DNA of 59,780 bases, filler included, from Jimgerdemannia flammicorona (taxonomy: Eukaryota), in the NCBI GenBank assembly GCA_003990765.1. It is 3 parts of 3 records of this genome, joined end to end, with 100 filler letters (N's around TTAATTAATTAA, not from the genome) between each part and the next. Parts side by side here need not be neighbours in the genome. Positions count along the whole stretch, not along the records: positions 1 to 19,862 come from RBNJ01001828.1; 2 more parts are not named here. One strand, 5' to 3'. Shown in pieces: positions 1 through 42,140 of this stretch; the stretch's first letter is position 1, and every line of letters starts with the position of its first letter. The notes beneath the pieces were generated by a model. The model was not told where the DNA came from. It saw nothing but the letters and a program-made list of their open reading frames with translations, and made no database searches. A program made the translations under genes and the position numbers.

Positions 1-252
1 GAATGACTCACTACTTAGCCACCTTATAGCTAGCAAACTTGTATAAATAACCCAGTATCTTCGAGTGAATAAACCTCAGATCGAAATAGTTCAAAAGCAA
101 GAGATAGCAAAGGAACTAGTAAGCCTGTGGGCAGATACACTTCGAACTCACCCACCCCTGCATCCCAAGGACTCTGAGGAGTCAGAGAAGATCAAGTATT
201 CAAGATACAGAAATCAAATGTACTTTCAAGAGTAAGTGTCTGCTATGTTACA
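1..252 (+). repeat. Dispersed ~250-bp repeat, copy 1
   Basis: ttagccaccttatagctagcaaacttgtataaataa...aagtgtctgcta recurs as reverse complement at ~4146-4397 and as an internally deleted, decayed copy at ~21455-21605. Confidence 0.85.
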
Positions 253-1814
253 ATCTGTGCAATTCTTATAATTACAAAATTCTTATTACTAATTCAGATC
301 AACTATTATAATAAATAACTATACAAAAATAGATATATTACTTAGTTACTAATTAGAACTTATAATATTATATAAAATTTGTTATTAAAATACTAAAAGT
401 TTTTATTAATTAATTTTGGTATATTTATATATTATCTATTACTCTATAATATATTTAATTAACTGAATGGAATAACTTTTATAAAATAGACAGAATAACT
501 ATCATATCTAATAATGTTGACTGTATTGTTAATATTGTAAATTATTTTAAAATTTATCATCAATTAGAATTATTTAGTTATATGCAGAATCTTGAGTGTG
601 TATTCAGATGCATTTATTTATTTATTTATTTATTAAGGAGGTGGGATACTTATGAATTGAATCTATCAGAATTAAGGTTCTCTAATACATTAACTTCAAT
701 TATACATTTGATAGCAGGCTTGAAAGCATTAACTTTCTGAACAAGGATCATGATGCTTACCCTTTCCTTCTCCACTTTACTCTCTAGTCACTAATTCGAC
801 GAATCTCCAAACTTAGAACAAAAAGAGTTGGGTTTTCAAGTTTTTTTTTTTAAAAAAAAAAAAAAAAAGATGCGCGCATAGAGGAACGTCAAAAACGACA
901 TCTTGCAGCCACCTCCAGTACCAATGCTGCGCCCCCGCATAACTGACAATCGACGACGAGCGAAAGGACGGCAAATAAAAGCACGGAATAGCGCGAAAAA
1001 CACGACCCCTGCAAGTCCGACGATGCCGGAGAAATGCGTGGAAGGACGCGAGAGGAACGCAAAAACAACATAAACTCAACGATGTGCATGTATTGCTAAA
1101 AATAATAAATGTTGCAAAACTGTGGAAGAAAACCAGTTTCAGTGTCGCCCCTTACTATGTATATCTTTATATCTTGCCTTTCTGCTACCTTCAATAGTGC
1201 TGCTCTTATCAGAGATGCAAAGTGATTTCACAGCCTTTCAAAGACTGAGGTTTGACAGTGTGAAGAGATTGATGCAAATCCCCAAGATATTCCGGCTTTG
1301 CCTTGTAACATGTTCAATGAGTTGGAACACTCGGTTGTAAAGAGAAAAGGGGAGGTAAAAAGTCTTTTTTAATCGGCCACAACATAATATAGTGTGTAGC
1401 AAAGGATTAGTCAGGAAGACCTCAAAGATTATGAATTAACTTTTATTGACTATATGTTCCGTATCGTGGATATATAGTCTTGCGCCGATGGCATCTAGCC
1501 TCTTCATATAAATTTCGCATGCATAGTTAGTTCCAGCAGAGATTTGATATGGCACATTGATATGTATCCATACGAAAACCGTACAGCAGCGAAATAGTAT
1601 TCAGTAGTCATTACAGTACTTAAAAGATGCAATCTGGATTTCTAAACTGGTTTTGCTGTAACATCATACACATGAAAATATATTTCAGATTTCGGAATAT
1701 TTTTTTTGGCCGAAGGGATGTACGTAATCCTTTAATATTGATTTGTGCACATTGTTTGGTAGAGAGTTTGAGCAGAACTATTTCCTTCACTCATTTCCCA
1801 TTCTCCTTCACCGC

Positions 1815-3406
1815 CTACGGAAGGTCTTCCACGAGGTAGTTAACCATGGACTGCAGGAAATAGCAGTGAGAAACGGTAGAAGCCAGATAGACAGCTACAA
1901 ACGAATTCCAGACTTACCCGCACATTCCACGCTGCACGAATGGCGTCTCCTAACTTATTGTACGATGGGAATGTAAAAGGGACAATAACTGTATGTAGCA
2001 GGTGGAGTCGGTATACCTCTCGTTTTTCAAGCATGAAAATCTTGATAGTACTCATGTGGGTCTACATATAGCGGAAAAAAACATATTTAACAAGCATGCC
2101 GCGGGTCGATACTATTTTATCAAAAATTCCCATACCTGCACACCCAAGGTGAAGAGATGCGACGGATCTTTTCCCTGTTGACGGTAGTCATTGTAAAGAG
2201 CTTTCAGCATGCTCTTCATGAAACGAGCAAGATGGCAATTTTTGCCGTAATACTTGTTTATATCGCACTCTTGAGGTTGGGCTATCAGGCCGCATAATAG
2301 AGATTGTTCTTTATACGAGGTGAGCAAGTCGACAACGGTGCCACCGTCCTCATTCAGAAGAGAAGCGGAGGTATCCCTAGGTCGTTGAGAGTATTATTAA
2401 ATTAAAATACATTGGGAGAAGGGAGTGGGGAAAGTAAACTCAACCTACCATACATTTCGGCAAACTGCATCGATATTGAGTGCGCCTTGCAAAAGGGGTG
2501 TGATGTAAGAAGCAAGATATTCTCTCTTGTGACATCCTTCCGTCAAAGGATTTTTTTGGCTTTCAATCGCATTTAGACTGAAACAGCAAATTAATTAGTA
2601 ATACGTATAAACAAACAACACTACAAAGAAAAAGACATACAATTGTCCTGTTGCTCCTTCAATCCACCGGATGACTTTCTTGAAGTTGATATCGGTTGGG
2701 GAGGTAGGTTTCAAATCGCGCAGGCCTTCCCACCTACGTCGTGCTTCAAGTAATGATATCTGTTTGTATATAGCGGCAATTAACATCAAATGAAAATTTA
2801 CTCAGCGAGGAAGGACAAACATGCAAGATGTAACCTACCTCTTCAGACGCCGTGCCAAAGAGTTGCGTGATGATAGTCTCGATTTCTTTGCACTTAGTGG
2901 TTCCAATATTTGGACGGTTAGCGACAAGCCCTTGCCATTGCCGCTCTGAAAATTCAAATTGGATTGGCGAAAGGCCCGACAGGTCGAGGATGAAGCTATA
3001 TGCGAAACTGGATGCGAGACCGTCCCAATAATTTTAATAATTGCATCGACAAGAAAAGGTTGAATACATATATAGCTAGTAATACTCACTCGAATGGATC
3101 ACTTGTTTTTGAGGCGTATTTCTGTACTATCTCAGACAACGATGCGTCTTTAGCATCTCTTCGAGGACGCATTTGCGCCGTCGCGCCAGAGCCCAGCAAC
3201 AAGGAGGAGGTGGCTAGGCATTCGACAATTCTATCGGCATCTCCCGAGCTGTCGGAACGCTTGCGCAAATGAAAAAGAGTCTTTTCGATGAATGCGAAAT
3301 CCGTGCGATACGGACAAGCGAGAGAGCCCATTCTGTGTTGGCCGCGGGTCACGTATAAACCATCGTAACGGCAGAGAAGGCAGGTGTCCGGGGGTGGTGG
3401 TGGCAT
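1815..3406 (-). CDS. Spliced hypothetical protein: N-terminal CxxC-H-C zinc knuckle, C-terminal region resembling a degenerate PD-(D/E)xK/REase-like fold
   Basis: ATG at 3406 (MPPPPPDTCLLC...H...ACP). About 7 exons joined by GT-AG introns give an open frame (ISLLEARRRWEG, KREYLASYITPLL, LARFMKSML...LGVQ, IKIFMLEKREVYRL, SMVNYLVEDLP*), TAG at 1815-1817. Domain assignment is by pattern recall only. Confidence 0.7.
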
Positions 3407-3539
3407 GTTGACAGAATGAATTGGTTGTGGACGAGAGTAGCTGGAGATCCTATCTCCCAGCCTGCTTTTATCCTTCACGTACTTGGTATGCATATAATTT
3501 CATGTATGTAGGAGATTTTGTGATATATACAAGGCCTCG

Positions 3540-3740
3540 GAACAATCAGCCTGTCGAACGAAACATGTCGAAACAATCAGTCTGATGGAGGAAACAATCA
3601 GTCTGTTGGAGGAAACAATCAGTCTGTCGAACAAAGCCCATGTTGAAACAATCAATCTGTCGAAAAAAGCCCATGCTGAAACAATCAGTCTGTCAGACAA
3701 AGCCCATCAGTTTGTGGGTTACGCCAATCAGTCTGTGGAC
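3540..3740. repeat. Minisatellite of GAAACAATCAGTCTG-core units
   Basis: About 7-8 imperfect 21-33 bp units upstream of the minus-strand gene. Confidence 0.85.
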
Positions 3741-4145
3741 AACGCCAATGATAAAACAAGTAGTAACGTGAATTTACGCCACGCATTTCTTTACTTCAGT
3801 TTCGTGGTGCCGCCAACCTAAAGATTTCACAAAAAATACCTCATGAGGATAAATGCTATTTAAAAAAGGGCTTAATTACATTGATTTATTATAATTCTAT
3901 GAAATTCTTTTTTTAAATTAAGTCCTATTATGGTTGGCTATAGTTTTAAAATAAAATTATAATCACTGAAATTTACAGTCACACATACTCAAATAGAAAT
4001 AATTATATTTGGTTAGAATATTACTATATTTGATATATAATATACATTTATTATTTATTTATTTATTTATTAAATATTTCATAATGATATTTCAGAAATT
4101 CAAAAATGAGAATAATATTTTCTAACTTTATAATAAGCATCTATA

Positions 4146-4397
4146 TATTATAATGTAGCAGACACTTAACCTTGGAAGTATGTCAGATTTCTGTATTTTG
4201 AAAACTTGTTCTTTTTTGACTCTGCAGAGTCTTTGGATGTAGGGGTAGATGAGTTTGAAGTATATCTACCTGCAGACTTACTAGTTTCTTTGCTTTAAAC
4301 TATTTCAATCTGAAGTTTATTCATTCTAAGATACTGCATTATTTATACAAGTTTGCTAGCTATAAGGTGGCTAAATTATGACTATATTATGAGTCAC
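4146..4397 (-). repeat. Dispersed ~250-bp repeat, copy 2 (inverted relative to 1-252)
   Basis: ttatttatacaagtttgctagctataaggtggctaa is the reverse complement of positions ~15-50, and similarity runs across the whole unit. Confidence 0.85.
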
Positions 4398-4411
4398 TTT
4401 TTGCAAGTATT

Positions 4412-4505
4412 GAAACTTTCAACATCTGCAAAATCTTCAATATCTGCAAAATCTTCAACATCTGTGAAAAGTTCAACATTTATGAAAACTTTAACAGTTG
4501 TGAAA
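4412..4505. repeat. 18-bp tandem repeat (aaaatcttcaacatctgc) x~5
   Basis: Direct inspection. Confidence 0.8.
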
Positions 4506-4713
4506 TAATAATGACTGCTATTTATAAGGCTATACTATATTGGGAATTGGATTAAAGTACTATGATCAAATATCTAATTTTCCTGATTTATATTTCTAAT
4601 TTGGATCAACCATTACAACTTCCTCCTAAATAGGTAATTCATCTCTGAAATATCCTATTCAAACTTCCAAGCTTCTACAATTTGTATCTCCTTATACTGT
4701 TCAATCTGTATCA

Positions 4714-5930
4714 TTTTTTTTTTGGTTTTTTTTTTTTTTTTTTTTGTTTTTTTTTTTTTTTTTTTTTAATGGACCCAATGTTCTACAGATTTTTATTGGA
4801 AGGGAATCTAGACTATATAGACCAAAATCCTCCCCCACCACCCATCAAGCACTACCCCTCTATTAATCTAGGCTAGCTATTATCCAGCAGCTTGACCATA
4901 CCAGGTGCAGCAGGGCCTATGTTGGTCTATACTTCATTCTGTATACTATGCTCTCCCTACTACCAGGGAAAATCCAGCCATATGCCAATGACTGAAAGCA
5001 CACACCTGAGAACCCAATGTATGTACAAGACCATGCCCGAGCTAAATAGAAAAGCCCCTACCATCTTAAAGAGAATGACAGGTAAAGAAAAACCCTCATC
5101 AAAGTACAATATGGTAGGTAGAGCCTAGTTCTCCCAGTTGAGGTGAGTAAAGGACTTATACATGAGGTGGGAGGAGACCCCACTACTCAAGCTTACAGGC
5201 CTCAATCATGTTGCTGTGTCAGCTCCTGGTTCCAGTTAAGTATAGCCAAGATACCTGAAATAGGTAGCCTTGGACCCCCCAACCCCCTCTGATAACTGGG
5301 GCCCAATCCACCAAATTGCCAAAGGAAGCCAAGAGTGATATCTACTATCTAACTGTGCTGTATCAATCAAAAGGCCCCACTGAAGCAGCACTCACCCTAG
5401 CCCTGATGACTGCCCCCAGCCTGGCACCCTACTGGTCCACCATTATTGCCCTTCCTCCTATCTGTGACAGCCATCTCCCCTCCCATCCTGACAATACCCA
5501 AAAAGCAGTCACCTATGCTAGAACTGTGCTTGCCAGGAAGCTCATCAAAGCCAGAGAGCCCCACCACAAGCACCAAGGACCTACAGGTAACCTATACTAA
5601 GCACTTGATACCCAAGGTCAGCCAACTCTCTATGTAGCCCGAGATACATCGAGACAGCACCTTATTGGTGATGGCAAAAGGAAGAAGGCATTACATCAAA
5701 ATGGATATACTCCAGATGTAGCCAAAGGCACCAGAAAATACAAAAAAGTAGAGAAGACACTGACCAGATACTGATAAAGAGGCAACTCATCACCATTGCC
5801 TCCCTCCCACTGCCCTGCAATAGGTACAGCAAACCAATCCAAGGTAGAGGGGGTAATAATTGTGGAAAGTAGACTCAGAAGATTATCTACCAAACCATTA
5901 TAACTGGTAAGGTAGTGGAGAAAGAGGTCA
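4714..5930 (-). mobile_element. Unclassified degenerate repeat ending in a poly(A) tail; possible non-LTR retroposon 3' end
   Basis: ~55-nt T tract at 4714-4768 next to a CpG-depleted segment that is G-rich on the minus strand. No recognisable protein motif. Confidence 0.35.
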
Positions 5931-6343
5931 ATCTGCATCATTACATACTCCCAGTATTGTCTCTTGATATATCCAAAGTCTCCTGGAACTATTCTACAAA
6001 GATGGGCTAGAGCTGACTCATCATCCTTAAATATCTTATTGACTCATTTAACAGTTATAATCTGAGTATAAGAGAGCTGACACTCTCTAATCCAGTCTTC
6101 TTTTCCCATGTCTGGTTGCAAGTTCAGTAGCTGTCCCAACTTGAAGTATTCTTGAAACTCAGTTCAGTTCTGGTAGATCTTGAAGTATGAGATTTGTAAC
6201 AGGTGTGTCTGGACTATGCTCTGCATACTGTCAAAGAATTCTTCTATGACTGGTGGCTCAGTAGTGCACCATTGTCTTTCTATGGCTCATTGTATAGCAC
6301 TGATGATCTTGAGGGCTATAGCAGTACTCCATTAGTTAGCCAT
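5930..6343 (-). pseudogene. Extra ORF downstream of integrase (unknown function)
   Basis: ATG at 6343 starts ~135 codons in one frame, with four stops each restorable by a single T-to-C change (3x TGA, 1x TAA): ...FQEYFKLGQLL...QLSYTQIITVK*VNKIF...AHLCRIVPGDF. Confidence 0.65.
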
Positions 6344-9017
6344 AATACTTCTTGAGTCAGTTTCAGTAGATGCTAGTAGGGATGATTGTGTCTGAGAGTT
6401 TTCATAGCCAAAAGGTGATCTCTTTTATATCTTGCACAAGGTAAGGTCCTTCCTACTGGGGCTCCAGTTTTCATAACCATGAAGCTTCTACTATATTCCA
6501 ATATACTAAGACCTTGTCTCCTATCTTGATAATCTCTAGAGGCTTGTGAATCTTTTCTGTATTATTCTATTGTAGTGCCTGTGCCTTGATTATGTAATCC
6601 TTGGCCTTTTTTCTGATTTGGTATAGTCTCTGTATTTCTCCATCCACTCTTTTCCATATAGCATTCCTATTAGATGATAGGGTTTCTTGAGAACTTTCTT
6701 CTCTGAATAGTATTTCTTGAGAGGTAAAATGAGTGCTTTGTAATCAAATATCCTAGAGAGCAGATAATGCTATTGGCAGATAGTGATCCCAGTTTTCATG
6801 GTTATCACAGATCTTGGCAATAATATTCTTGAGGATCTTGTTGGTCCTTTCTGTCTATCTATTTTCTTAAGGATGATATGCTGTAGTCTGAATGTGCTGG
6901 ATCTTGTACTTCTTATAGAGAACCTCAAAGAACTGGTTCACAAATTCTATTCCTCTGTCTGTAGTTACTTGTGTTGGGGTCTTGAACTGGCAGATAATTT
7001 CTTTGTAAAAGAAATCAGCAAATTGACTGTATATCCCTGAGGGGTCCTGCCTCTATCTATTTAGTAAAAAGGTCTACAATGACAATGATGTATCAGTTGC
7101 TAGTCAAAGTCAAGAGTAGAGGGCCAATTACATCTATTGCAATGTGGGCAAATGGTGCTGGCTCTATGTATGCTGATCCTGGGGCTTGATTTTATTGATT
7201 TTGTTTCTGTTTCTAGCATTTATCACAGATCTTGACAAATGTCTGACATCTTCCTCTATTCCTGGCCACCATATTGTTCTTTTTGCTTTATCATATGTAT
7301 TTGTTCCTCCTAGATGGCCAAGTTCATATACTGATTTCATTACTTACTCCTTCTTGTGTTCTGGTATAACTAGTAGTTTTCCTTTCTTCAGTATTTCTCT
7401 ATCAGTTTCAAATTGTTTCCATGTTCTGTTGATAATTGTTTGTGTCCATTCTTCCAGATGTTGGGGCATCTTTCACTGTCTCAGATAGGTGATTATTCCA
7501 TAGTAGAGCTCCTTATTCATAATTTATTTACTGATTGGGGGGCCTTTGAGGTATCTGTGAGAGGGCATCTACATTGGCATTGGTTTTTTCTGGGTAGTGT
7601 ATAATGGTTATGTCTTTTGCTTGCAACTTCATGATCTATCTGGCATAGATTCCTTTAGATTGCCCAGTGGTCAGTAGCTAAGTAAGGGCTGAGTGGTCTG
7701 TCTGGATGGTGAAGTGTCTTCCAGCAAGGTAGTAGTGGAACTTTTCCACAGCCCAGATAACTGCAAGGTATTCCAACTTATAGGATTCATATTATTTTTC
7801 AGCTTCTTGAGTTCCTTGGCTTAGGTATGTAATGAAATACTCTACTTTGTCTTTCTTTTGAGCTAGGACTACTCCTAGTTCCTGGGTGCTTACATCTGTC
7901 TGTGGGATGAATTCTTGAGTCCAATTGGATCTTCTGAGGATGGGTGCCTGAGTCAGTCTGACCTTGAGCTCATCAAATGCTTTTTGTTGTCTACCAGTCT
8001 ATCAGAACTTGGTATCCTTCTTGTTGAGTTCATAGATTGGGCCTGCAATGTTAGAGAATTCTCTGATAAATCATTGATAATATGAGGCCAGCCCCATGAA
8101 AACTTGGACTTCAGTAATAGTAGTAGGTCTTGGGTATGCTACTACTACTTGTATCTTGAGAGGGTCTGTGTGTATTCCATCTCAATTGATGATATAGCTG
8201 AGATAGATGATCTCAATTCCATGAACTTGTACTTCTTGGGCTTAGTATAAAGACCATGCTGTCTCCACTTCTCCATCATCTGTTGGATGTATTGCAGATA
8301 TTCCTCAGCTGTTCTGCTGTAAATGATAATATCATTCATATAAACTATCATCCATCTTTCCATGTCATAGTGAAAGATTTTGTTCATCATTCACTGGAAG
8401 CTTGCAGGGGTATTGCACATTCTAAATGACATTCACAAGTAGATGTAGGTTCTGTCTGAGGTGATGAAGGCTGATTTCTCACTTGCTGTTTCTGTGAGTC
8501 TGATTTGGTGGAATTCTGAATATAGATCCAAGGTGCTGTAGTACTGTACTTCATCTCTCAGAGTTATAAGAATATCATTGATGAGAGGCAGTGGTTGGCA
8601 ATCCTTCTTAATAACTATGTTGAGCTTTCTGTAATCAATGTAGAGTCTTGGGGCAAATTCTCCAGGCTTGCTTTCTTTCTTTAGAGCTAGTACAACTGGT
8701 GAAGACCAGGGGCTACTGGCCTCCTTGATGATACTGGCTTCTTTCATCTGCTTGATTTCTTCTCTGAGCCACTCTCAGTTGACTGGTGGGACAGGTCTTG
8801 TCATCTGGTAAATTGGTTTGGTATCACCAGTATCTATGTCATAATAGTAGTGTGGAGTCTTTCTCTTGATATTCTTGAAGTCTCTAGCAAGGACATCCTC
8901 GAATTCATACAGCATTTTCTTGAGTGGGAATTCATTTCCAATAGTATAGCTGTGCTTATTTGTAGTTTCCTCCTTGTACTGCAGCTCAGTGATCTTGATA
9001 CTGGTAAATACTCCTCT

Positions 9018-9438
9018 TCCCATAGATCTGAATTCTTTTCTTCCTCTTTCTGTTTCCTCCAACTTCTTGACTTCCATGATCCTTGGCTGAAGAACTGGGA
9101 AGATCAACATCTACATATGCCAGTCAGTCCTTTTTCTTAATTGGAAATGGAATTGTAAGATTGTAGTTTCTAGCATTAAGTAGTATTTCTCTAATATAAT
9201 CAAAATCAATAACTCCTCCTTCAATTGTAATTTCACTCCTAGCCAGGCTGCTTCTTGTCTTAAGGATTCTAATATGGTCTTTTGGAATGGTCATATCCAG
9301 ACTGGTTGTGAGTAGGGTGGTTGTCTGGGGTTCTAGTATAGTTTCTTCCACTGTGGCAATATTCATTCCAGCTATATTTTCTGACTTATATTCTGATAAG
9401 ACTGTATTAGAGAGAATCTTCCAAATCTTGATCTTGAT
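9018..9438 (-). pseudogene. dUTPase domain within the retrotransposon pol, between protease and RT
   Basis: Trimeric dUTPase motifs in order: IAGMNI (AGxD), TRSSLA, GGVIDFDYIREI, QMLIFP, TERGRKEFRSMG (RGxxGFGSTG). One frameshift near 9120. Confidence 0.9.
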
Positions 9439-9602
9439 TTTCTCTTCATTATCACTATCTTCGAGGAGAGCTGGTGGTTTGTCACACTCTTCCTCCTCTT
9501 CTTCCATTCTCTTTTCTTCTCTTGCCTATTTCTTGAAGGTCTTCTCTCTTCTTTGGTGGTAGATTTCCTTGATTTTGCCAGTGCACTGATAACACTTGTT
9601 GA

Positions 9603-11674
9603 TGTAAGAGGGTTTACTTTTTAGGATAACCATTACGTAGTTCTGAAAAGGTTTTCTGGAAGTTCTGGATATTCTGGAAGACTGTTTTCTTAAGGTCAAG
9701 ATCAATTTCATATAGAGTACATCCTCTATGCTTATTGATTTCAAGATCGAATTAATGTCTCAACCAAAGTCCTTTTTTGGACTAGTTTTGGATGTTCAGA
9801 AGTTTCCATATTTCAGGAAGTTCAAGAAACTAAGGCCAGCTTAGTTGAATTGGCATATCGCTGTAGACAATACCCAATTAGGAAATTTCATGATAGGGTT
9901 AGGAGTGGGACCTAATGGGGAGCAGATTTACTTAAGAGTGGTTTGTGGGTTATTAAATAGGTTTATTTGCTATTCATGATATTACTATACTAGGAGTAGC
10001 TGTGTGAAGAGATATTATGGGGAAGTATTCAGAAGTTGTGTTCAGATTGTTCAAGTCTGAATTTCTGAGGTCTGGGGGAGGAGGTATTTATACTAGTGAG
10101 GGGCTATCTGGGCTAGGCTAGATATAGATGTAGCACTAGTGCCTTGCTGAGTCGGAATGCAGTCATATAGTACAAGTGTGATCTGATATGTCAAGAGATC
10201 ATCTGACTGCTGAGTCAGTTCACAGTCATGTTGTATAAGGCTAATCTAACTATACTATGACTGCTAAGCTATTTATTAGTTTAGACACTGTCTGGGTAAT
10301 CTTCGATAACATCACCATCGATGACATCATCTCTGATGAAGTAGTCATCTAGGAAGAGTAGTTTGTAGATTACTTCTCCTTATTCACTGAGGTAATAATA
10401 CATTGGGACTTCATCACCATTCCACAGAATAGCATCATCTGTCTCATATGCTGAATAAGGTGTTGGTGGGCAAAGGATGGGTGTATCATCTTCACTTTCA
10501 TTGGATTCGCTATCTGTATACCTTCTATAGGTTACAGCACTATGAGTTATAGGGTTGTAGTAAGCTGGCGGCTGTGGTTCATGTCGCTTGTACTCAGGTG
10601 GTAGAGTGGTTGGTTCAATCTCGAGGGTTATCTGAAGGTACAGGTTGTGTTCTTCAGTCTCTTCATTATAGTTAAAGTAATCAGGAATAAATGCAGGTTA
10701 GTATTCATACCAGTGGTCATTGTCCCAATAGGTCTCATAGGTGGTTATGAACTATTATAAGTTCATTGGCAGTATTGGTGGAGTGATCAGGGTTAGCAGG
10801 GATCCTTGGCTTGAGATCATGTTGGCATCAGAGGGATCATTGTCTTCTGCTTCATCTTTATCAAATCAGATTATATCATAGATGTCCTTCATAGTGTATC
10901 TGACTTGAGGCATTTGCAGGATATGGTCATCAGAGTGTGAGAAGGTTCTGTCTGTAGTCTGAACATATTCAAGATGCTTGTAGTTGAGTCCTTATATCAT
11001 GTCGTCAATTTGGCCATAGGACAGGATAGCAACCATCTTGGCAGTAGTAACTCAGAGGCAGGGAATAAAGGTGCTGTACTCATAAAAGAGTTCCCAGTAT
11101 TTGTGGGTGATGAGTTTCTGGTGTTGAGACATCTGGGTAATATCTGTATTGTGATGGTGTTTGACTATATCTTCTAGGAGGTGGCCAATCTGATAGTAGC
11201 TTGAAATTTGTCCAATTTGGTAGACTTCGCTAAGCATGTTCAGGGCATTCCATTGGGCTTCTACAAAGTAGAGGGGTACTAGACTATGGATATTCATGAG
11301 GGGCAGAGGGGGTGTGGCTCAGTTGACAATGGCATTCCAAATGTCAGCATGGATGTGGTTATAGATCTCGGTGGTCATGTTTGTATATGTTCAGAAGTTA
11401 TAGTTGTATGTTTGGTTTGTTTTGGTTCTCAGTTTTGATATATTTTAGTGCTTGGTATTTATGTATTTAGTCCTGATTGGTAAGATTCTGTTTGTGTAAA
11501 TCTTGTGTTCTGTGACTTTATATTGACTCAGCTTTGTGCACTGTGACTTTGGTTTGACTCAGCTTTGTGATCTTGCAGGTGATTTCCAGATTTGTTCAGA
11601 GGTTACATGTGATTTCCATGGCTTGTTCAGAGGGTGACATATGATTTTGATGGCTTGGAGGTTGTGCGCTTACA
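9603..11674 (-). mobile_element. Solo LTR (2072 bp) nested in the Ty3 pol
   Basis: Termini TGTAAG...CTTACA; 5-bp TSD GTTGA at 9598-9602 and 11675-11679; colinear with the LTR at 55677-57757. Confidence 0.95.
10281..11378 (-). pseudogene. LTR-internal ORF, copy 1 (365 codons, disrupted)
   Basis: ATG at 11378 to TAA at 10281-10283 spans 1098 nt, the same length as copy 2. Confidence 0.75.
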
Positions 11675-12424
11675 GTTGACATGCTCTATACAGTAAATTC
11701 AGATCCTATGAAGGCAGACTCCTTGTGGTGCATATCCTTCTATAATCTTTTTGCATCAGTCTTCTTCACTCATCCATCTGATTTTCTTCTTCTTTTTCTG
11801 AGTTATTACCATATAGGCTTCCTCTTGTTCACTCTTTTCTTCCTCTATCTCAGGCAGGACTCCTTTGTTGACATTGATGAGAATTTACATCTTCTGTCTA
11901 TAGTAGATGATCTACATCTTCTGAGTATTCAGATCAATTATTGCTTTGGCTTTATGAAGCCACTGGTTGCCAATGGGGATGTTATAGTTGGTTGCATTAA
12001 TCATAATTATATTCACTGAGATAGTTGCTCCTTCAAACTTGATGGGAACATCTCAGATCTTTCCCAGAGGTGTGGCTCTTGAACCATCTGCTGTGATAAA
12101 TACCAATTTAGTTGCTTCTTCAACTTCCCAATCTAGGCAGTTAGCTGCTTTCTTGCTGAGAAGGTATCTTCCTGCTTCTGTATCAATGATAGCCTCAAAT
12201 TCTCTATCTTCAATTTGACAAGTTGCATAGACAGAGATCTTTCAGTTGTCTTTGCTTTCTTCTCCTGAGTCCTCTTGGACATTATTGGTCTCAGTTATCT
12301 TCCAACTTTGCTCCCTAGTTGTCTCAGCAAGTCCATATCTCATTTGCTGTCTGAATGTGGGTATTTCTACCAGCTAGCTAAAGGTGATATTGACCTTTTG
12401 TTAACTGAGATCTTTGAAGATATC

Positions 12425-12813
12425 TGTAACAATTTCACAGTCATGTTTAGTCTTAGTATATTTTTTGGATCTTTTAGTCAGTCTTTTCTTGTCATTTCTT
12501 GAATATTCTACTATGTTCCAGTGTCTTCTACTTGCTTAGAAACCTTCTCTCAGTGCCCAGACACTACTAGAACATTCTTGTCTTTTCTTGGCACCAAGTA
12601 TCTTGTCTCAGCTAGTCATGGAACCCTTTGGAATATTGTAGAATAGTATTAGTCAGCTTTGCTAAGAACCTATTTCTTGGTATTTCTCTTTCTTTCCAAG
12701 ATCCTTCCAGATCTTTCTTTCAGATCATGTATAAATAGCCTTGTTCTCTGCCTGAATAAAGCTCAGAATATTTTCTCTCAGAAATCCTTCAAGAACACTT
12801 AAACCTTTAAGTA
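12425..12813 (+). mobile_element. Truncated LTR of the family seen at 40695-41159
   Basis: Starts TGTAAC; reverse complement of ~40771-41159; homology ends at a TA where the next element begins. Confidence 0.9.
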
Positions 12814-14498
12814 TAGTGATAGTCAAAAGTATACCAATGTTTGGTTATTATTAATATTTTAATTATATTATACCTTCAATCTAAATTCTATTTAACCAAA
12901 ATTTTAAACATTAATAAAATAGCCTTTAAACTTTTGAATAGTATGTGTTTTATTATATTTAGATAATTATGGACATTAATATAACCATTTTAAGTTAAAT
13001 TATCCATTGGTACTATTTTGACCCTTCTCAGTATATAGACCTTTTTTTATTTTTTGATGCATACATTTTGCATACTATTAATATCCAAATTTTCGCCATT
13101 ATTGTTTCAAACATTCTTTATAACTCTACAATGTTTTCGTGCAATATCAATTTAGTTTCATTGTTCTGATTTCTAAATTAGACCACTTAACATTTTCCTC
13201 AATAACTTGGTGAGTTTTCAGTCGATTTTGATGATCCTGGTGCCATTGGAAAGTCATTCTCAAGAGCTTTTCAAAGATACCAAGGACATTAAAATCGGAT
13301 GAAAATTCACTGAGTTATCAAGGAAAACGTCCAACTTGCCGAGTCCGAAACGAACATTTTCCTCAAAATCTCAGTGAATTTTCATCCGATTTTAACATTT
13401 ATAATATCATTGTGAAGCTCTCTATAATAGCTTTCCAATGACACCAAGATCATCAAAAACGGATGAAAACTCACTGAGTTATCAAGGAAAACGTTTGGTG
13501 GTCTAATTGGTAAGACAATGGCAAGTGTCAATAACATAAAAAGAACTCTCAAAAAGGCCAGTATATGTATCAATGTTTTTGCCGTAATGTTGATCTATGC
13601 TAGGGAGGTGTAACTATACTACATTTTGCATAATATCAACTATGCTACACTCACATGATGTCAATCTTCGTGATAAAATACCAATAACCCCATGTTACCG
13701 AAATGACCATGCATCACCCCGAAATTCTAGGAAAGAAACCTCAAATAAATGATCAATTGTTCTATAATTGGGTGGAAACACATGGTATAAAAGACCGGCC
13801 CAACCACTATGTATATATATATAGGGTGAGGTGGGTGGTAATGAAATACGTATGAATGTATGGAAGTGCAAAAGCATAAGTGTAAAGCATGTACAAAGTA
13901 ATATTGGGTGAATAGTAGAATTACATATAGAAGTAATGTGCATACTGTGCTAGTACCAAAAAAGGAAAGACTACGCCTGATTTAGAAATGCCTTAGACAA
14001 ACAACGGTATTGAAACATTTTGGGCACTATATACCTAAGACCTTCCTGCATTCATTGACCTGTGGTCTCAAGCGAGCCCCTCATTCAATGTTTTTGCCGT
14101 AATGTCGATCTATGCTAGGGAGGCATAACTATACTACGTTTTGCATAATATCAACTATGCTATGCTCATGTGATGTCAATCTTCGTGATAAAACACCAAT
14201 AACCCCATGTCACCGAAATGACCATGCATCACCCTGAAATCCTAGGAAAGAAATCTCAAATAAATGATCGATTGTTCTGTATTTGGGTGGAAACACATGG
14301 TATAAAAGACTGGCCCAAATGTTATATGTAAAATGTGCAGAATGATGATGTATAGCGGTGTGAGTTGGCAGTACTGAAAGAAAGAACTCAGCCCAAATGA
14401 AGTAAAAGAGGGGTTATGGATGTGGAAATGTGAGTGGAGTAGAAGATAGAAAGGCGCCGAAGGCTTAATAGAAAGGCTGTGCCCAATGTCAATGATAT

Positions 14499-14864
14499 GG
14501 CTGGTATCACGAGCCACGCAGTTAAAACTGAGGGTAGGTGTTGCAAATCATGTGAAAGCCAAGAAGCTGATTTAATGAACCCAGCGATCGAGGGATAGAG
14601 CTGGTGTCGCGAGTTGTGCAGGGGTCCGAGTAGGCTGGTGTCATGAGCTGTGTAAAAATGAAAAGAAGGAGGGCTGGTGTCATAAGCCATGCAATGTCGG
14701 AAAAGGTTAGTATCATGAACTACGCAGTGGCAAGAGGCTGAGGTGGGTGGATTAAAGGCTGGTGTTGTGAGCTGCACAGTGATATAAGGCTGATGAGAAG
14801 AGGTACAGGCTGGTGTCGCGTGCTGCGTGGGACCTGGAATAAGCTGGTGTCACGGGCTACGTAG
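14499..14864. repeat. Array of ~23-bp conserved repeats with variable spacers
   Basis: Consensus near GGCTGGTGTCRYGAGCYRYRCAG at ~14499, 14532, 14565, 14599, 14633, 14672, 14705, 14757, 14808, 14842. Confidence 0.85.
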
Positions 14865-14888
14865 TAGAAAAAGAGGAATGGAAAATCA

Positions 14889-15900
14889 TTAACTGCAAGT
14901 AATATGAGTACCAGAACAAGTATTACAAGTTAACGAAGCCCAAAGGTAGAGAATGCGAGAAATAGGCATGTGAATATAGCCTTTAAATGCCATGCTCTCC
15001 CACCGACCCAACATCTGAATCTCATAATCAGATAAGCCAGCCACAGCAGCATCAGATGTTGCGCCAATCCGAAAACTATGCCCAGCATAAAGAAGTGGAT
15101 TCAGACCAATCCGTGGAAGTAACACGCGAAGACGACTAACGAGATAGACCTGAGAGAATGATTGATTTGCAGAATGCTAGAACAGAGGGGTGTTAGGTGG
15201 GGCTGGGTGCACCAGGTAAAGAAGGCGAAGTAAGGATATAATGCATGGTGCAGCAGGATCCATTTTGGCGATAAAAAGTAATGCACCCTGGTGAAATGGG
15301 TCTGTTTTAGAGGCCAGCAGAGTGAGCATAATATGGGTGGAGTCGGCAATGCTAGGTTGAAAGACCACAGAGCTGTGGGACAGCTGGGAAATGGGATCGA
15401 AAGACCTGTCCCATGTAAATTCGCTAGAGCGAAGAAAACTGACATATGCAAGCAACATCGCGGTCGCAAGATGCAGATCATCATAATCAGATAGCCGAAG
15501 CAGACTGATAAGACTGTGAAGAATACTGAGCATGATAGGAAGCTGAGGTTGAGTTGGGCATATACCTAGCCACCGCTTCACGCCATGCATCACTCAGGGA
15601 AGTTGGTGAAGACTGATGAACAGATCGGCAAAGCCGGAGTCAATATGTAGAGAACAAACAGCTGAGAGGTAACATTTGATTGTGGATGGTTGAAGCTGTT
15701 GCAAGGCCAAGCTACAGACCCACTGTATTAGCACCAGTTCGGACATGGGCAAAGGCCCGCCAGAGGCATGATTACTGCTATGGAGATTGCAGAATTGGAG
15801 GAAGCTGTGTTGTCCCAAAGAGTATGAGCAGTGCATTGATTTTGCCAGTCTGAACCACAAAAAGAAGGCAATGACAGGTGGAAGTGTGGAATGCAAATGA
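14889..15900 (-). pseudogene. Tyrosine recombinase of the Ngaro element
   Basis: LQPSTIKCYLSAV, AYVSFLRSSEF (R), SKTDPF (K), YAGHSFRIGA (HxxR), LGRWES...GY. Frameshifts and stops present. Confidence 0.95.
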
Positions 15901-17400
15901 TACCAATCGCGGTCAGGAGTGTCTGAGCTTAAGGGGCAAGATGATGGAAATGAGGAAGATCAGCATGGGATAAAGCATCAGCAATGCCATTATCAGATGT
16001 TGAGATGAATATAACATGAAGTTGAAAAGCATGATGCACCATTTGAAAATAGAGCTGGTGGAGAAGTTCCAGCAGAAGAGGGTTGCATGAAGAGCCCAAG
16101 TTGATAATAGCAATGACCACCTAATTATCAGAATGAAGCAATATATGGTGAAAATGCCATTGAGCACCCCAGGTAGCAGTGGCAGTGACCACAGCATAAA
16201 GTTCCTTGAACTGAATGTCGCGCAAGGCTATATCAGGAGGTCAGGGAGTGGAAAACTATTTGCTATTGAAATGTGCACCAAAGCCTTGGATCCCACTGGC
16301 GTCCATCCATAATTGTGCATCAGGCTCATGGAACCATGCTACTGGATATATAATGGAAATACCATTCCAGTGGGGTAGAAATTCAAGCCACCAATGAATA
16401 TCGACATAGAATTTCTCATTCAGTGAGATATGGAATGAGGCGTTGCCAGAAAGAAGGTTGATAAACTGCTGCAGGAATGGGCAGCCTGGCGGAATGATTT
16501 TACAGGCAAATGCCAAAGAACCAATAAGAGACTACAGTTGAGAGCATATACATAACGTATGCGATAGCCACTGCTGAAGAGTGGTGAGCAATGTGTCAAG
16601 CTTGCCGAGAGGCAGGCGGACTTCCATAGTCATTGTATCCAATTCGATGCCCAGAAAGATGAGTGACATTGTCGGGCCTTCTATCTTGCACTCTTGAATC
16701 GACCAGCCAAGATGACGACAGATGGCAAGAAGTAAACATAGGTCGGAAAGGGCAAATGGCCAGAATGGTAGTGAAATAAGGAGAAAATCGTCGACGTAGT
16801 AGATGAGTATGCATATGTCATGATGGTGGGCGATCCATGCGAGAAGTTCCGCGAAAAGGTTGAAAAGAAATGGTGATGAGGATGTGCCAAAAGGAGTGAA
16901 CCGATTGAAATAAAACTACCCCGACCACTCGAAACCCAGCAACTCCCAATCTATAGGATAGATGAGAATATGACGATATCTATCAGCGAGGTTGACCTTT
17001 GATATGTAGAAGACATCCCTGGCCAAAACGACAAACCAAGTTCAAAGTCTCGTCGAACTTAATGTAAGAGAGCCGAAAGGTGTCGGTATCTATGCTGGTA
17101 TTCACCGAAGAAAGGTCATGAATATGATGCCATGCACTATTAGAATTCTTCTTCGCGATGGCACTAAGAGGAGATGAGCGAAAGTATTTGAATGGAGGGG
17201 ATGAGAACAGACCACAAATTCTATCGGCAGCAACTTCCTGCTCGATGTCAGACATGATCGCTTCTGGGTAGTTGAGAGCAGAGTGATGATTGTAGGACAG
17301 CAGGTGCCGATGAGGCCCATCAAAGCTGAGAAGAGCACCTTGAGTAATAGCAGTGATGGCAGCCTGAGCTACCCACAGGTCAGGATACAACTGGAGCTCA
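15900..17400 (-). pseudogene. RT-RNase H of the Ngaro element
   Basis: FRSSPLSAIAKK...IHDLS, YYVDDFL (~16790), WMDASGIQGFG, KELYAV, DNGIADALS. Confidence 0.9.
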
Positions 17401-17589
17401 TGCGCCCATGTGACAGGGTGAAGAGCAGAAGAAGGAAGAGGAAAATGATGTAGAATGTCTTGAGCAGCTTTGTTAAGAAGAGTGGTAAATGGGCGACGGA
17501 GTAGGGTATTTGGAGCAGCTGAGGGTATGTGTAAAGAATAAACAGGGGCGAGTTCCTAGGGGCGAGACAATGGATTGTGGGAGCATCAA

Positions 17590-18955
17590 TACTACGGATG
17601 ATCACCATTGCAGCGAGAACAGGAATGCACATAAGGGCATCCTTTTCTGTTGCACCCAGGATCCTTCATGGGTGATCCATCAAATAGAATGCTGTTGTAT
17701 GCCTGACAAGTAGACCATTGAGAGGCATTCTTGGTAGATGGAGCGGAGGAGCCATCAGTAAGACATAGCCCCCATTGTACATTGTGAGACTTGAAGGGCT
17801 TAAGCGAATTAGATGTAGAGGTCGGAGTTTGCGGACATTGATGTAGACTAAGGATCATAAAGAGGTCGGGGTCGCACTGGGCCCAGTGCTCACACTATAC
17901 CAAAGAAACACCATCGTTTGCGATCTCCACCAGTCATTTTGTATGAAAGGAGACATGATAATCAAGAAGCGCGGACCAATATGACGACATTGATAGTAAA
18001 ATAAAATCTGCGGCATATGAAAATAATGGAGTAGGATCAGTGAGGCCTGGGTACACGTCATGAAGAATGCTGAAATATGTAAGCAGGGTGGTGAGGAAAG
18101 CAGGGACATCCAGAAGATCTTTGATAAGGGATGGCGGCTTTCGAAGAATGATCTGAGTACCCGATTCATCAAATATTTCGATGAATTGAGCATCAGGAAG
18201 ACCACTGATAGAAACGACATTTCACTCCAAGAAACAGCTGAGTGACATGGTGGTGAACGAATTGTTGATGACCACGGCCAACAGCCATTAATTAACATAG
18301 GTGTATTTTAAAGAGAGATTGACACCTCAGACAATGGTATGGGCAGAGATGACAGAAGGAGGTATAGGGATAGACTCACCCTGGGGATTACCGGCAGGGC
18401 CGTGAATGCTGGTAGACCGAACTGAAGGGATAGTTGGTAAGGGCTGGGATGAGGATGGGGAAGCGAGAACCATTGAAAGAGAGGCAGTAGCATGATCGAT
18501 AAAGGCTTGATCGATGATGGGAGATGCGTTCTGACCAGAAATGGCAGGAACTGTACTAGCCAGTGCCACCGAAGATACAATATCAGGGCAAGAGCATAAA
18601 AGCTAAAAAAGTTCATCGAACCGACAGTCTTGTGTGGATGCATGCTCTTGGAGCTGAGCAATGCTGGCTTCAATGGAAACATCAGAGGCCGGTGTGCTGA
18701 AAAAAGCTGGTCTGGCTGCTGTAGTACTAGCGGGAACCTTGGATGTGGTATGCACTGATAGATACATGATTCAGCAGGGTGCGGAAGTAGAGTGATCAGG
18801 GAGGGTGGCGAGGTAATCCATGAGGATAGTAACATCAGGGTTCTTACTATCAGATTCCAGGTCATCTTGCAGAAAGCGGAGTACATGTTCGATGAAATTA
18901 ATGTTCAAGCAGAAAGGGCAGGTGGCAGAGCCCAGGTTGTATTGGCCCTTCAACG
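17590..18955 (-). pseudogene. gag-like ORF1 of the Ngaro element
   Basis: Pro/Ser-rich fragments ending in the Cys/His finger CNRKGCPYVHSCSRCNGDHP. Confidence 0.7.
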
Positions 18956-19862
18956 TATGGGAAGGGTCATATCAATACAAAAGGCAGGAATTTGTGGAGA
19001 GGACCATGGTAATGTAATGAAATGCATACGAATATACAGAAGTGCAAAAGCGTAAGTATAAAGCGCATACAAAGTAATGTTGGGTGAATGGTAGAATTAC
19101 ATATAGAAGTAATGTACATACCATGCTAGTACCAAAAAAGGAAAGACTATGCCTGATTTAGAAACACCTTAGACAAACAATGGCGTTGAAACATTTTGGG
19201 CACTATATGCCCAAGACCTTCCTGCATTCATTGACCTGTGGTCTCAAGCGAGCCCTCTCATTGTAAGCAAAAAAAACCTGCTTTTGCTGCCTCATCACAT
19301 CAAGGCACAATACAAATTTGCAACATAAAGATTGAACCATGACTGAACTGGATGGCTGTAAATGGGTATAGGCAAGGTGCAACCTTGAAACTGAACCATG
19401 TGACCAGAACTCTAAAATTTGGTGGCCTTGATAACTCAGTGAGTTTTCATCCGATTTTGATGATATTGGTGTCATTGGAAAGCTATTATAGAGAGCTTCA
19501 CAATGATATTATAAACGTTAAAATCGGATGAAAATTCACTGAGATTTTGAGGAAAATGTTTGTTTCGGACTTGGCAAGTCAGACGTTTTCCTTAATAACT
19601 CAGTGAATTTTCATTCGATTTTAACATCCTTGGTACCTTTGAAAAGCTCATGAGAATGACTTTCCAATGGCACCAGGATCATCAAAATCGACTAAAAACT
19701 CACTAAGTTATAGAGGAAAACGTTAAGTGGTCTAATTTGGAAATCAGAACAATGAAACTAAATTGATATTGCGCGAATACACTGTAGAGTTGTAAAGAAT
19801 GTCTGAAACAATAATGGCGAAAATTTGGATATTAATAGCATGCAAAATGTATGCATTAAAAA

Positions 19863-19962
19863 NNNNNNNNNNNNNNNNNNNNNNNNNNNNNNNNNNNNNN
19901 NNNNNNTTAATTAATTAANNNNNNNNNNNNNNNNNNNNNNNNNNNNNNNNNNNNNNNNNNNN
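19863..19962. other. Artificial contig linker
   Basis: 44 N + TTAATTAATTAA (stops in all six frames) + 44 N. Confidence 0.98.
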
Positions 19963-25297: not shown

Positions 25298-26790
25298 CTT
25301 TGTATGAAGCTTTTCAAAACAAGAACACCGTGGCGGTCGAAAATTCCAGTTTCATAGGTTTTAATATCAGAATTAGTGCTCGGTCACTTAAGGATGTTTG
25401 GCTTCCCTTTTGATTCTTGAATTCCGTGTTGGTGGGTCTGGCGCACGACGAGTCACAAGGATTGTGGCCAACGTGTCGGATGTTGCGCACCCCGTACTCC
25501 GCGCATTTACATTGGCCAGACTAAGCTGGGCCACGTTGCCTCGCCGCTGACCAAATACAACATGCAAATCCAGCTAGTCGAATTTCCATAAGGCGACGAG
25601 TTTATGATGACTGATGCGTGGTTATGTCAGTTACGAGGTGTCGTGGGAAAGGGTTTTCTTTGACTGTTCGGGGAAGGTATATTTTTGTGTCGATCACATC
25701 TCTTCAACAGTTTGCAAAGCTTAAAGCTGTGATTGAATTACTCGAATACTATATGAATAAAAGTTACTCAGACTCTATGCTTACCGTTTTGTCATAGAAG
25801 GTACTACCCTCTCTAATAAGCGAAAAGCAAGGGAAAGGTGAACTGGTAAACGAATGTTGAATTCTTATGTAAAAGTCAAATAATCTCTATAAAGTAATAA
25901 AAAGGGGTAACGGGTTCTCGGGGTACATCCATTGTTGAGACGTCCCAACCAAGGAACCTCTCCCTTTTCATTTTCATTTTCATTTATTTATTTATTTATT
26001 TTCCGAACAATTCTTTTACGACTTAAAATCATTACAGCCAGCCACCAAAACATTGTTCGGATTTGGAGCCGTGGAGCTGAATTTCGCTCCAATCGTTGTT
26101 GAAGCCATCAATTACAGCTCTGGTTTATAACGTAGTGTATGCACTATTCACGTTCGGAAGTTGCACCTTTTTTTTCGCACTATGGGCGCCGGAACGGTCG
26201 AAACGCCGCTTACATCGGTACCAAAAATTCAACTTAAAAATCAAGATAGAAGAGGATTGTAACACATGGCCCTAGTCCTGTGTCTCGAACGCGGTAGGAA
26301 TCGTGAGCAATCTCGCGCGTTAAGGCTCGTTCCCGTAAAGCGAAGAGCTTCACGATTGCGCACACTCCTGGATCGTGATACGTTTGTGACACACCGCGCG
26401 TTCCGGTGAAGTTGTCCGAAGGACACGCGAGACAACACGTCAGTCAAGCGACGATTGGGCAACGTATGAACCCGTGCCATTTCCTGGTAGAGTATATACA
26501 ATCCAAGTGAGGCAATCTTAGCTCATTTCGTTCACAGCTAGGTTCTTGTCCAACCCAAGCTCAATAAACCGTTGCCAAGCACATCCAAGACCCCTTTATT
26601 GGCTTGTACCGGATCATAGAATTGGCAAAAGCTCGGCCCGGTTATCGGGGGGACATGAGAAAACCATAAACATTGTTTGGCCCAAAACCGAACACGCGAT
26701 CAAACTCTACGACATGATAGCGATACATTCTTATTCTATATAAATCACCATCTCCAAGCTAGTAATACCATTACCTTTCGCACGACAAAT

Positions 26791-41159: not shown

Positions 41160-42140
41160 GGTAGGTCCATAAGTACTAGTTGCCATCTTAAGAAGAAAGC
41201 TTGAGTCAATAAGAGAACCATCTATTGCTGGAATCATAATAATATATCTCTTTGTCAAAAAACCTATCTTAATATACTTAGTATTGACTGTAATCATTTT
41301 GAAAATATTAGAAAGCATTTGGCTAAAAACCACCTTCTTTCCTAAGTCTATGATAATATAAAAAAGATACTACAGTGAAAACTAAGATGATCATCAATAT
41401 GAATGTGACTACTGTGATAAAGAATTTTATCTTAAACTATATCAAAGTATATAAGTTGCCTAGTCTAGTTAGAAATATTAATTGTGTAATCTAATCAATT
41501 ATCTTTTTACCTATAGAAATGAGCTACAAGTCTATTTATTATAACTTTTTAGTAGGCCTAAAAGAAGATAGCACTTTGCATATACTAAAATACAATGTAT
41601 TTTGCAAATTGTAATATTAGCTAACTTTACATATCCAAATTATAAGCCTTCAAACTAATTTATATGATACTTATCAATATTTGCAGAATGATTTATATAT
41701 AATTCAAAGCTCATAAAGAGGAAGAGACTCCAGATTTATTAAAGAAATATAGAGAGCATCTCACTAAAGCTAGATTAGAGAGAAATTATTATAACAAAAA
41801 TATCAAGTTGATAGAAGAATAAAAGAAACTCATTAATCAGAATTATTCTATACTGAAAGGCAAGATGCTATACTACAGCATTGATGTGGTTGCATATTAC
41901 AGTTATGACTGAGCTCAAAATATCTACATAACTTATTCAGATTAACAGATCAGCAAAGTATATTATCTCAGTACTCACAAAGTATAATTATTTTGGATCT
42001 AGAATGAAGTAGTCTGTGAACAAATTAATTATATTCTTGATAAGAACAAACTTTTTAGAAAAGATCCAAATGGTATACTTAGCCTAGTTTTTGATGGAAT
42101 TAAATAATTAAATAGAAGTGAAAAGCATTTGAAGGTTTCT
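41160..42140 (+). mobile_element. Decayed Sola-like DDE transposase fragment
   Basis: HYSYD*AQNI...QISKVYYLSTHKV...EQINYILDKN...KDPNGILSLVFDGI...EKHLKV, matching my recollection of the SxDxAQ...GKGxN transposase pattern. Confidence 0.55.

Follow-up and report, generated by a model that had tools for sequence, protein, structure and literature searches.

Retroviral accessory genes located in or overlapping the U3 region of the 3' long terminal repeat (LTR) include sag of mouse mammary tumor virus (MMTV) and nef of human immunodeficiency virus 1 (HIV-1). In LTR retrotransposons, sense additional open reading frames (ORFs) that follow pol and precede the 3' LTR, called "aORF-3S", have been reviewed for plants and are mostly env-like, as far as the accessible part of that review goes (Vicient and Casacuberta 2020, PMC7264820). 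For fungal Gypsy elements, a figure legend from 2010 mentions an "add. ORF with unknown function" (PMC2864245). The accessible part of the same source describes dUTPase-bearing fungal Gypsy elements, including PosPlaTy3 families, and places the dUTPase between the protease and the reverse transcriptase (RT) in PosPlaTy3-5. In bdelloid rotifers, additional ORFs are common to very different types of retroelements, according to the available text of Rodriguez et al. (2017, PMC5408684). Here, we analyze a stretch of 59,780 nt of DNA (the window) from Jimgerdemannia flammicorona (GCA_003990765.1), in which a dUTPase-bearing Ty3 element (element A) carries an ORF downstream of its integrase (ORFx), and a chromovirus carries a reading frame within its LTR (the LTR ORF). 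The window consists of three record parts joined by fillers of 100 Ns. Positions 1-19,862 are from RBNJ01001828.1, and adjoining parts need not be neighbors in the genome.

As read from its sequence, ORFx is a genuine additional gene of 153 codons, sense-oriented and located between pol and the polypurine tract (PPT) and 3' LTR of element A. The best explanation of the data, which we hold at about even confidence, combines this real gene with the view that the likeness of ORFx to the N-terminal 110 residues of the LTR ORF more likely reflects chance or a generic helical resemblance than kinship. Codons 1-138 of ORFx are located at 5930..6343 on the minus strand and begin with an ATG at 6343-6341. 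The frame opens with MAN-stop-WSTAIALK and aligns with the database protein P0019 (tblastn, 64% identity, E=1e-54). The ATG is 5 nt upstream of the stop codon of pol (TAA, 6336..6338, minus strand, read from the sequence) and in a different frame, so that the two genes overlap by 8 nt. Codons 139-153 and the TAG stop (4657-4655) are found at 4655..4702 on the same strand, as recognized by tblastn with the tails of relatives and by reading of the sequence. The last 19 residues of P0019, a protein of 153 aa, match 4714-4658 with 74% identity (tblastn, E=3e-4), and the tail of another relative, P0023, matches the same site with 63% identity (tblastn, E=2e-6). Since a poly(A)-tailed insertion interrupts codon 139 and the tail of the gene is found beyond it, ORFx has 153 codons. 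The initial annotation had placed the end of ORFx at 5930, which gives approximately 138 codons; this position is actually the breakpoint of the inserted retroposon. From the true stop of ORFx, the distance is 27 nt to the PPT and 38 nt to the start of the LTR.

Relatives of ORFx were sought by an exhaustive phmmer search, which covered 1.84 billion representatives without a length limit, and by a profile search of a collection of 5.8 billion proteins. The former returned three proteins at E<=0.001 (1e-46, 1e-41, and 9e-9), all of them short and covering the same frame. Of 1197 candidates in the profile search, 12 distinct proteins, originating from ENA and JGI, passed E<=0.01. They are 49-153 aa long, their contigs measure 515-3003 bp, and none of them is a longer host protein. 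They share 59-85% identity with each other; identity to P0019 is 59-83%, and among the closest relatives of P0012 it is 79-86%. These relatives are known as proteins, and their tie to the same pol is drawn from this window alone. The ORFx profile gave 63 pattern matches but 0 relatives in viral_contigs, and 69 pattern matches but 0 relatives in metagenome_contigs.

The heavy decay of element A makes its frames untrustworthy, and open frames of at least 100 codons are frequent in the window. Both points would suit a reading in which ORFx is no separate gene, being either a frameshift-displaced extension of the integrase or a spacer that is open by chance. The gene models of the relatives speak against this reading, which we regard as highly improbable. 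Eight of the 12 start at the methionine used in the window and four at Met37, and the two that reach the C-terminus (P0019 and P0023) share an end that is also encoded in the window, past the insertion. No integrase-fused form of ORFx was found in the exhaustive phmmer search, and the integrase frame of element A closes with LKKYYG-stop, past a GPY-type module. A known integrase C-terminal domain had been named as a possible identity of the segment. ORFx lies in another frame than the integrase and has its own methionine, and Pfam searches for a C-terminal domain of this kind (Chromo, SH3, GPY/F) found none (no family for P0007, and none at cut-off among 13 ORFx members). Capture of a host-gene fragment, or of a piece of an unrelated insertion, is a different explanation for the segment, and it has in its favor that element A has received two other insertions. 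However, neither a target duplication nor a repeat boundary is present around 6343, the start of ORFx overlaps the pol stop, its end is 27 nt from the PPT, and the database relatives are all short (49-153 aa). This origin is equally improbable, and the separate gene of element A is the reading that we follow below.

In terms of position, ORFx is an ordinary additional ORF, and in terms of sequence it is an orphan. When the 13 members were compared with Pfam, no family reached its cut-off; the best match was HTH_Tnp_Mu_2 (E=0.031, 14.8 bits against a cut-off of 20.5), seen in two of the 13. A profile search of PDB sequences gave a single match, an asparaginase (E=0.078), and a Foldseek search of the PDB with the ORFx model gave no structure at E<=0.001, the top rows being generic helical bundles. 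The statement of the initial annotation that both ORFs are uncharacterized stands; neither has a Pfam or PDB family. The copy of ORFx in the window is dead, with four nonsense codons and a retroposon in codon 139. Where these in-frame stops fall, the relatives have Asn at one site and Arg at two sites, and at the fourth site Arg, Gln, Trp, His, or Tyr.

The retroposon that splits ORFx is approximately 1.2 kb long and occupies 4715..5927 on the minus strand, as delimited by reading of the sequence, GC content, and target duplication. Its 3' end consists of AATAAA, approximately 25 nt, and an A-run of approximately 75 nt. A 14-bp target duplication with one mismatch flanks it (5941-5928 and 4714-4701), and the GC fraction within it is raised to 0.45-0.54. 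Pfam searches with its minus-strand frames and with two long plus-strand ORFs found no family. The retroposon probably represents either a non-LTR element truncated at its 5' end or a repeat resembling a short interspersed nuclear element (SINE). In a soil-metagenome DNA run used in the form of contigs (run X1, word share 0.09), thousands of contig pieces are similar to 4715-5927, and no contig spans the insertion among the X1 contigs listed.

Earlier readings of this region were rejected. A 3' LTR of element A starting at about 5945, with ORFx running into it, had been proposed from an open frame of 115 codons and from an abrupt rise near 5970 in the summed depth of the run X1 contigs; it is ruled out by the tail of ORFx beyond the poly(A) insertion. 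The open frame, with its hydrophobic end, is retroposon sequence, and so is the read-through frame reaching 5696 that was taken as part of ORFx. A match between LSTIITPSTL and LPTLITPPNL seen with hhalign likewise comes from retroposon sequence and not from ORFx.

Element A is a Ty3 element on the minus strand, and its domains were identified by Pfam. The protease (RVP_2, E=4.4e-6) is located at 11909..12280 and is severed from the dUTPase (9393-9118, E=3.6e-9) by a nested solo LTR. Downstream lie the RT (RVT_1, 8651-8217, E=4.9e-18), the RNase H (RT_RNaseH_2, 7992-7621, E=4e-25), the integrase zinc domain (Integrase_H2C2, 7367-7236, E=2e-8), and the integrase core (rve, 7007-6870), whose match is under the cut-off (E=0.0031). 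The whole of pol (6870..9393) is decayed, with numerous stops and frame changes. The Pfam scan gave no Chromo match in element A. At the 3' end of the element, the PPT AGGAGGAAG is read at 4627-4619, and a TG-initiated repeat starts at 4617 with TGTAATGG and extends to approximately 4140. Within it, 4374-4147 is repeated DNA, because it matches 15-254 in inverted orientation with 80% identity. Given the preceding PPT, its TG start, and its repetition, this segment is the likely 3' LTR of element A. Two later insertions are recognized in element A: the poly(A) retroposon and a solo LTR of the chromovirus.

Upstream of the protease, a stretch of 394 bp (12421-12814) recurs in inverted orientation at 40770-41163 with 90% identity. 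The former is probably the gag of element A, and the latter is a fragment of another copy. A further retroelement is located at 13838-19262 on the minus strand, with RVT_1 at 16535-16915. It is bounded by direct repeats of approximately 248 bp that are 90% identical (13838-14085 and 19014-19262), and it is enclosed by inverted repeats of 437 bp (13051-13487 and 19426-19862, 94%), next to which the N run 19863-19962 begins. This retroelement takes up the position in which element A would be expected to have its gag and 5' LTR.

The arrangement of element A resembles that of PosPlaTy3-5 in that the dUTPase lies between the protease and the RT. The examples in the accessible part of PMC2864245 are from Basidiomycota and Ascomycota, and the paper centers on chromodomain-containing elements, whereas element A has no chromodomain. 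ORFx shares several properties with the aORF-3S of plants: it follows pol and precedes the PPT and the 3' LTR, it is in sense orientation, it is kept across copies of the family, and it has no known function. Unlike the plant ORFs, it is only 153 codons long, its product is predicted to be all-helical with no membrane segment, and it has no relative in a named family. An env-like ORF would be several hundred residues long and would have a signal peptide and a membrane anchor. Regarding these traits, the 153 residues contain no long hydrophobic stretch in the all-helical model; a dedicated predictor of signal peptides and TM (transmembrane) segments was not run. Because no membrane segment is predicted, ORFx is not considered env-like.

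The product of ORFx (isoelectric point (pI) 6.8) would be small and soluble, built entirely of helices and free of membrane segments. Its translation may rely on re-initiation where the pol stop and the ORFx start overlap, or on a subgenomic RNA. The protein could act in trans on the nucleic acid of the element or on its expression, as a regulator or a chaperone; we regard this role, which is drawn from sequence features and a model, as rather unlikely. The hints of such a function are the helical content, a basic helix (IAKRIHKLF), the sub-threshold match to HTH_Tnp_Mu_2, and neighbors in the ESM Atlas that resemble regulators. Among these neighbors are a cluster labeled "LmbU family regulator" and one of HTH_3, in which 15% of the members have that family, and they are a lead only.

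The second host element is a chromovirus, also on the minus strand. Its integrase and chromodomain are located at 58183..59490, with the pol stop at 58185-58183, and Pfam recognizes Integrase_H2C2 (E=1.2e-19), rve (2.7e-6), SH3_Tf2-1 (3.4e-17), and Chromo (2.2e-15). The initial annotation was correct in that the two hosts differ, since element A bears a dUTPase and lacks a chromodomain, and also in the positions that it gave, with ORFx between pol and the 3' LTR and the LTR ORF within an LTR. The 3' LTR of the chromovirus, of 2081 bp, is at 55677..57757 on the minus strand; it is preceded by the PPT AAGAAGGGGAGAG and has TG..CA ends. The solo copy lies between the protease and the dUTPase of element A at 9603..11674 on the same strand, with TG..CA ends and the sequence TCAAC as a target duplication of 5 bp. 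In run X1, one public contig links 9596 to 11676 without the solo LTR and thus displays the empty site. The TG..CA ends, the PPT, and the TCAAC duplication establish that the 2.08-kb unit is a true LTR. The two copies are 86.6% identical. At the upstream end of the chromovirus, 33-bp tandem repeats are present at approximately 59600-59780, upstream of the integrase. The element seems to be cut off at the end of the window, and neither an RT nor an RNase H is seen ahead of that point.

The LTR ORF lies in sense orientation at positions ~289-1386 of the 2081-bp LTR. In the 3' LTR copy it covers 57469-56372 (minus strand) and has 365 codons from its methionine, with two stops. In the solo LTR it covers 11378-10281 (minus strand) and is decayed, with eight stops. 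P0018 (JGI, 128 aa) shares the methionine of the LTR ORF and has Arg at the first stop. In P0017 (ENA, 247 aa), which spans residues 115-365, the second stop is replaced by Gln. These relatives show that the ORF is continuous. Between the two copies in the window, the in-frame ratio of nonsynonymous to synonymous substitution rates (dN/dS) amounts to 0.156, with 0.12, 0.15, and 0.19 for successive thirds, versus 0.75 and 1.02 in the other frames, from which it follows that the LTR encodes a protein gene that evolved under purifying selection. The differences between the copies fall 45, 24, and 80 times on codon positions 1, 2, and 3, respectively. The N-terminus of the protein is helical, and residues 131-365 form an acidic region of 235 residues (pI 4.1) rich in Pro and Tyr. 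Searches of Pfam and the PDB with the LTR ORF found no relative, and a profile of its N-terminus gave 270 pattern matches and 0 relatives in metagenome_contigs.

The initial annotation had recognized a real ORF within the LTR, as the intact relatives and the dN/dS confirm, but the extent that it saw, 88-91 codons, falls short of the 365. The peptides that it quoted are present in the window: V-x21-YFKLGQLL in the minus-strand frame from the ATG at 6343, and V-x21-YYQIGCLL, QMSQHQKLITHKHRELF, and YEYNTFIPCL-stop at approximately 57148-57421 on the minus strand, with a second copy at 11052-11318 (minus strand). Its pairing of KDDESALAHLC with YEYNTFIPCL-stop as matching ends of the two ORFs is mistaken, as the stop is a C-to-T nonsense codon (TGA, Arg in the relative) beyond which the ORF continues to 365 codons. 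Both LTR copies have this TGA (57143-57145, Arg in P0018) as well as a TAA (56789-56791, Gln in P0017). The sharing of the two stops is odd, given that the copies diverged under purifying selection on either side of them. Parallel C-to-T hits, read-through, or gene conversion are possible causes. Most of the private stops of the solo LTR copy are also of the C-to-T kind, and P0018 differs from the window copies mostly by Arg in place of His, Cys, Gln, or a stop. The losses of Arg in the LTR ORF and the stops of ORFx, three of four of which fall at Arg positions, look like repeat decay of a C-to-T or CpG type.

A selected protein-coding gene inside an LTR is unusual. The LTR ORF is comparable to sag and nef in that it is located wholly within the LTR, in sense orientation, and under purifying selection. 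Sequence similarity with these genes is not expected. The element here is a chromovirus, its host has a fungus-type genome, and ORFx itself lies outside the LTR. A full-text literature search, judged by titles and the beginnings of abstracts for 15 of 22 matching papers, met no fungal retrotransposon with an ORF inside its LTR, which is not proof of absence in print. The accessible part of PMC10787394 reports no ORF inside an LTR.

The initial annotation had aligned ORFx and the LTR ORF by eye and proposed a shared family. Between the copies in the window, this alignment is at chance level. Smith-Waterman scores of the window ORFx against the two LTR copies are 31 and 26, with shuffle means of 30.1 and 27.7, and they were reached by 779 and 1258 of 2000 shuffles, respectively. 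A hidden Markov model (HMM) of ORFx, run on 1132 non-self ORF pieces of the window, ranks the LTR copies fourth and sixth (4.0 and 3.8 bits, E of approximately 3), and ORFx is absent from the top 12 non-self matches of the LTR HMM on the window pieces. Between intact relatives from databases, the similarity becomes borderline. The annotation had also called for a profile-profile comparison, and here hhalign found no significant match between ORFx and the N-termini of the LTR ORF: P=0.041 with a probability of 1.3% for four versus three sequences, and P=0.044 with 1.2% for 13 versus three. Against the full-length LTR ORF, P is 0.22 and the probability 0.3%.

The rival explanation is that a single ancestral accessory gene gave rise both to ORFx and to the helical domain at the N-terminus of the LTR ORF, having moved from one Ty3 lineage to another, for instance through template switching when RNAs of both were packaged together. 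The gene would be upstream of the PPT in one lineage and downstream of it, in the U3 of the LTR, in the other, where it would have the additional acidic Pro/Tyr-rich tail of 235 residues. We consider this scenario somewhat less probable than even, and the same holds for the bare common ancestry of the two ORFs, which we place a little short of an even chance. Several results favor it and weigh against the explanation that we prefer. BLASTP aligns P0012 with P0018 at E=0.008 (14 of 56 residues identical) and P0019 with P0018 at E=0.001 (17 of 62), in both cases in the segment noted in the initial annotation. In local alignments of nine pairs, the scores of the two pairs with P0018 were reached by 5 and 44 of 3000 shuffles. 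The semi-global score of P0019 and P0018 is 54 (z=7.2, 8 of 200,000 shuffles; 8 of 20,000 for the local score), this being the best of many correlated pairs. Residues specific to P0018 within the aligned segment all improve the match, and the alignment of P0018 with ORFx keeps the same register from both N-terminal methionines, with an offset of 4-7 residues.

Tests with HMMs, for which 1535 length-matched pieces from the same window served as decoys and shuffles as a second null, point in the same direction. The ORFx HMM scores P0018 at 7.2 bits (8 of 3000 shuffles, no decoy). The HMM of the LTR ORF N-termini scores the whole of P0019 at 10.6 bits (1 of 3000 shuffles, no decoy) and its first 150 residues at 9.1 bits (one decoy). 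Each HMM thus ranks the best member of the other family above all, or all but one, of the decoys. The eight profile-versus-sequence tests all fall within 1-92 of 3000 shuffles (8, 48, and 56 for the ORFx HMM; 1, 5, 92, 41, and 31 in reverse). The signal rises when the decayed window copies are replaced by intact relatives, as homology predicts. AlphaFold models of low confidence, all-helical but too poor to superpose, place five helices similarly in both proteins: 3-26, 33-51, 61-75, 81-104, 109-115, and 120-129 in ORFx (predicted local distance difference test (pLDDT) score 56.5), and 3-20, 34-54, 61-73, 85-102, and 105-118 in the LTR ORF domain (pLDDT 49.4). The neighbor clusters of the two proteins in the ESM Atlas overlap, which is a lead only, since helical orphans of the same size may have neighbors in common. 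Moreover, each of the two is an accessory ORF in sense orientation, placed at the 3' end of a Ty3 element, and both elements live in the same genome. A further point against the explanation that we prefer concerns function, as the nucleic-acid-binding or regulatory role included in it draws solely on helical content, the basic helix, and the Atlas neighbors.

Other results argue against common ancestry. Besides the hhalign probabilities and the chance-level scores and HMM ranks inside the window, seven of the nine local pairs were reached by 512-1775 of 3000 shuffles. The addition of nine sequences gave no gain in the score of the ORFx profile, and lengthening of the LTR profile lowered the score of P0019 from 10.6 to 8.6 bits. 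The signal leans largely on P0018 and is gone against the two LTR copies of the window, for which P0019 gives z of approximately 1 (786 and 911 of 5000 shuffles). Family members are spread widely, from z=7.2 to 0.7, the other semi-global pairs having z values of 3.3, 3.0, 2.3, 1.25 (P0020), and 0.74 (P0024). For 11 ORFx members, the number of the 1535 decoys that score as high or higher is 1 for five of them and 3, 3, 5, 25, 46, and 95 for the others. A p of approximately 0.001, which recurs in several correlated tests, has to be discounted for many implicit comparisons, because the pair was chosen by eye in a window of 60 kb. Shuffles, like decoys taken from random ORFs, are lenient nulls when two helical proteins are compared. 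The tail of ORFx contributes nothing to the match, and no bridging sequence was found in any collection searched. On balance, chance or generic helical resemblance remains our preferred account of the likeness, by a narrow margin and at the confidence given above.

The bdelloid rotifers offer the nearest parallel for a shared gene. As described in the available text, the same captured accessory ORF can occur there in unrelated retroelement lineages of one genome, as would be the case here. In rotifers, the sharing is a finding of that paper, whereas the sharing between ORFx and the LTR ORF is only borderline.

Two further features of the window were noted. At 26659-28627 on the plus strand, two ORFs match MFS_1 (major facilitator, E=6e-8 and 3e-10), and they probably make up an intron-containing transporter gene of the host. 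At 53991-54356 on the plus strand, an RT fragment (RVT_1, E=7e-8) is located just below the 3' LTR of the chromovirus.

The firm outcome of this analysis is a corrected anatomy, which comprises the extents of both ORFs, the two nested insertions in element A, and a premature stop that had been mistaken for the end of an ORF. The additional ORFs of LTR retrotransposons are little understood, and those of fungi have hardly been described. ORFx provides a clean case, being small, placed tightly against pol, conserved across copies, and a member of no known family. Should the kinship with the LTR ORF be confirmed, it would show that accessory genes can pass from one Ty3 lineage to a distant one, and that a gene can cross the PPT boundary into the LTR, altering its copy number and the logic of its expression. 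In its fullest form, which we regard as unlikely, a helical module of approximately 110 residues would have passed, within one fungus, between a chromovirus and a Ty3 lineage that bears a dUTPase and is not chromoviral. A shift of the PPT would then have placed the gene and its tail inside the LTR, where it would be present at both ends of the element and in every solo LTR and could regulate LTR-driven expression.

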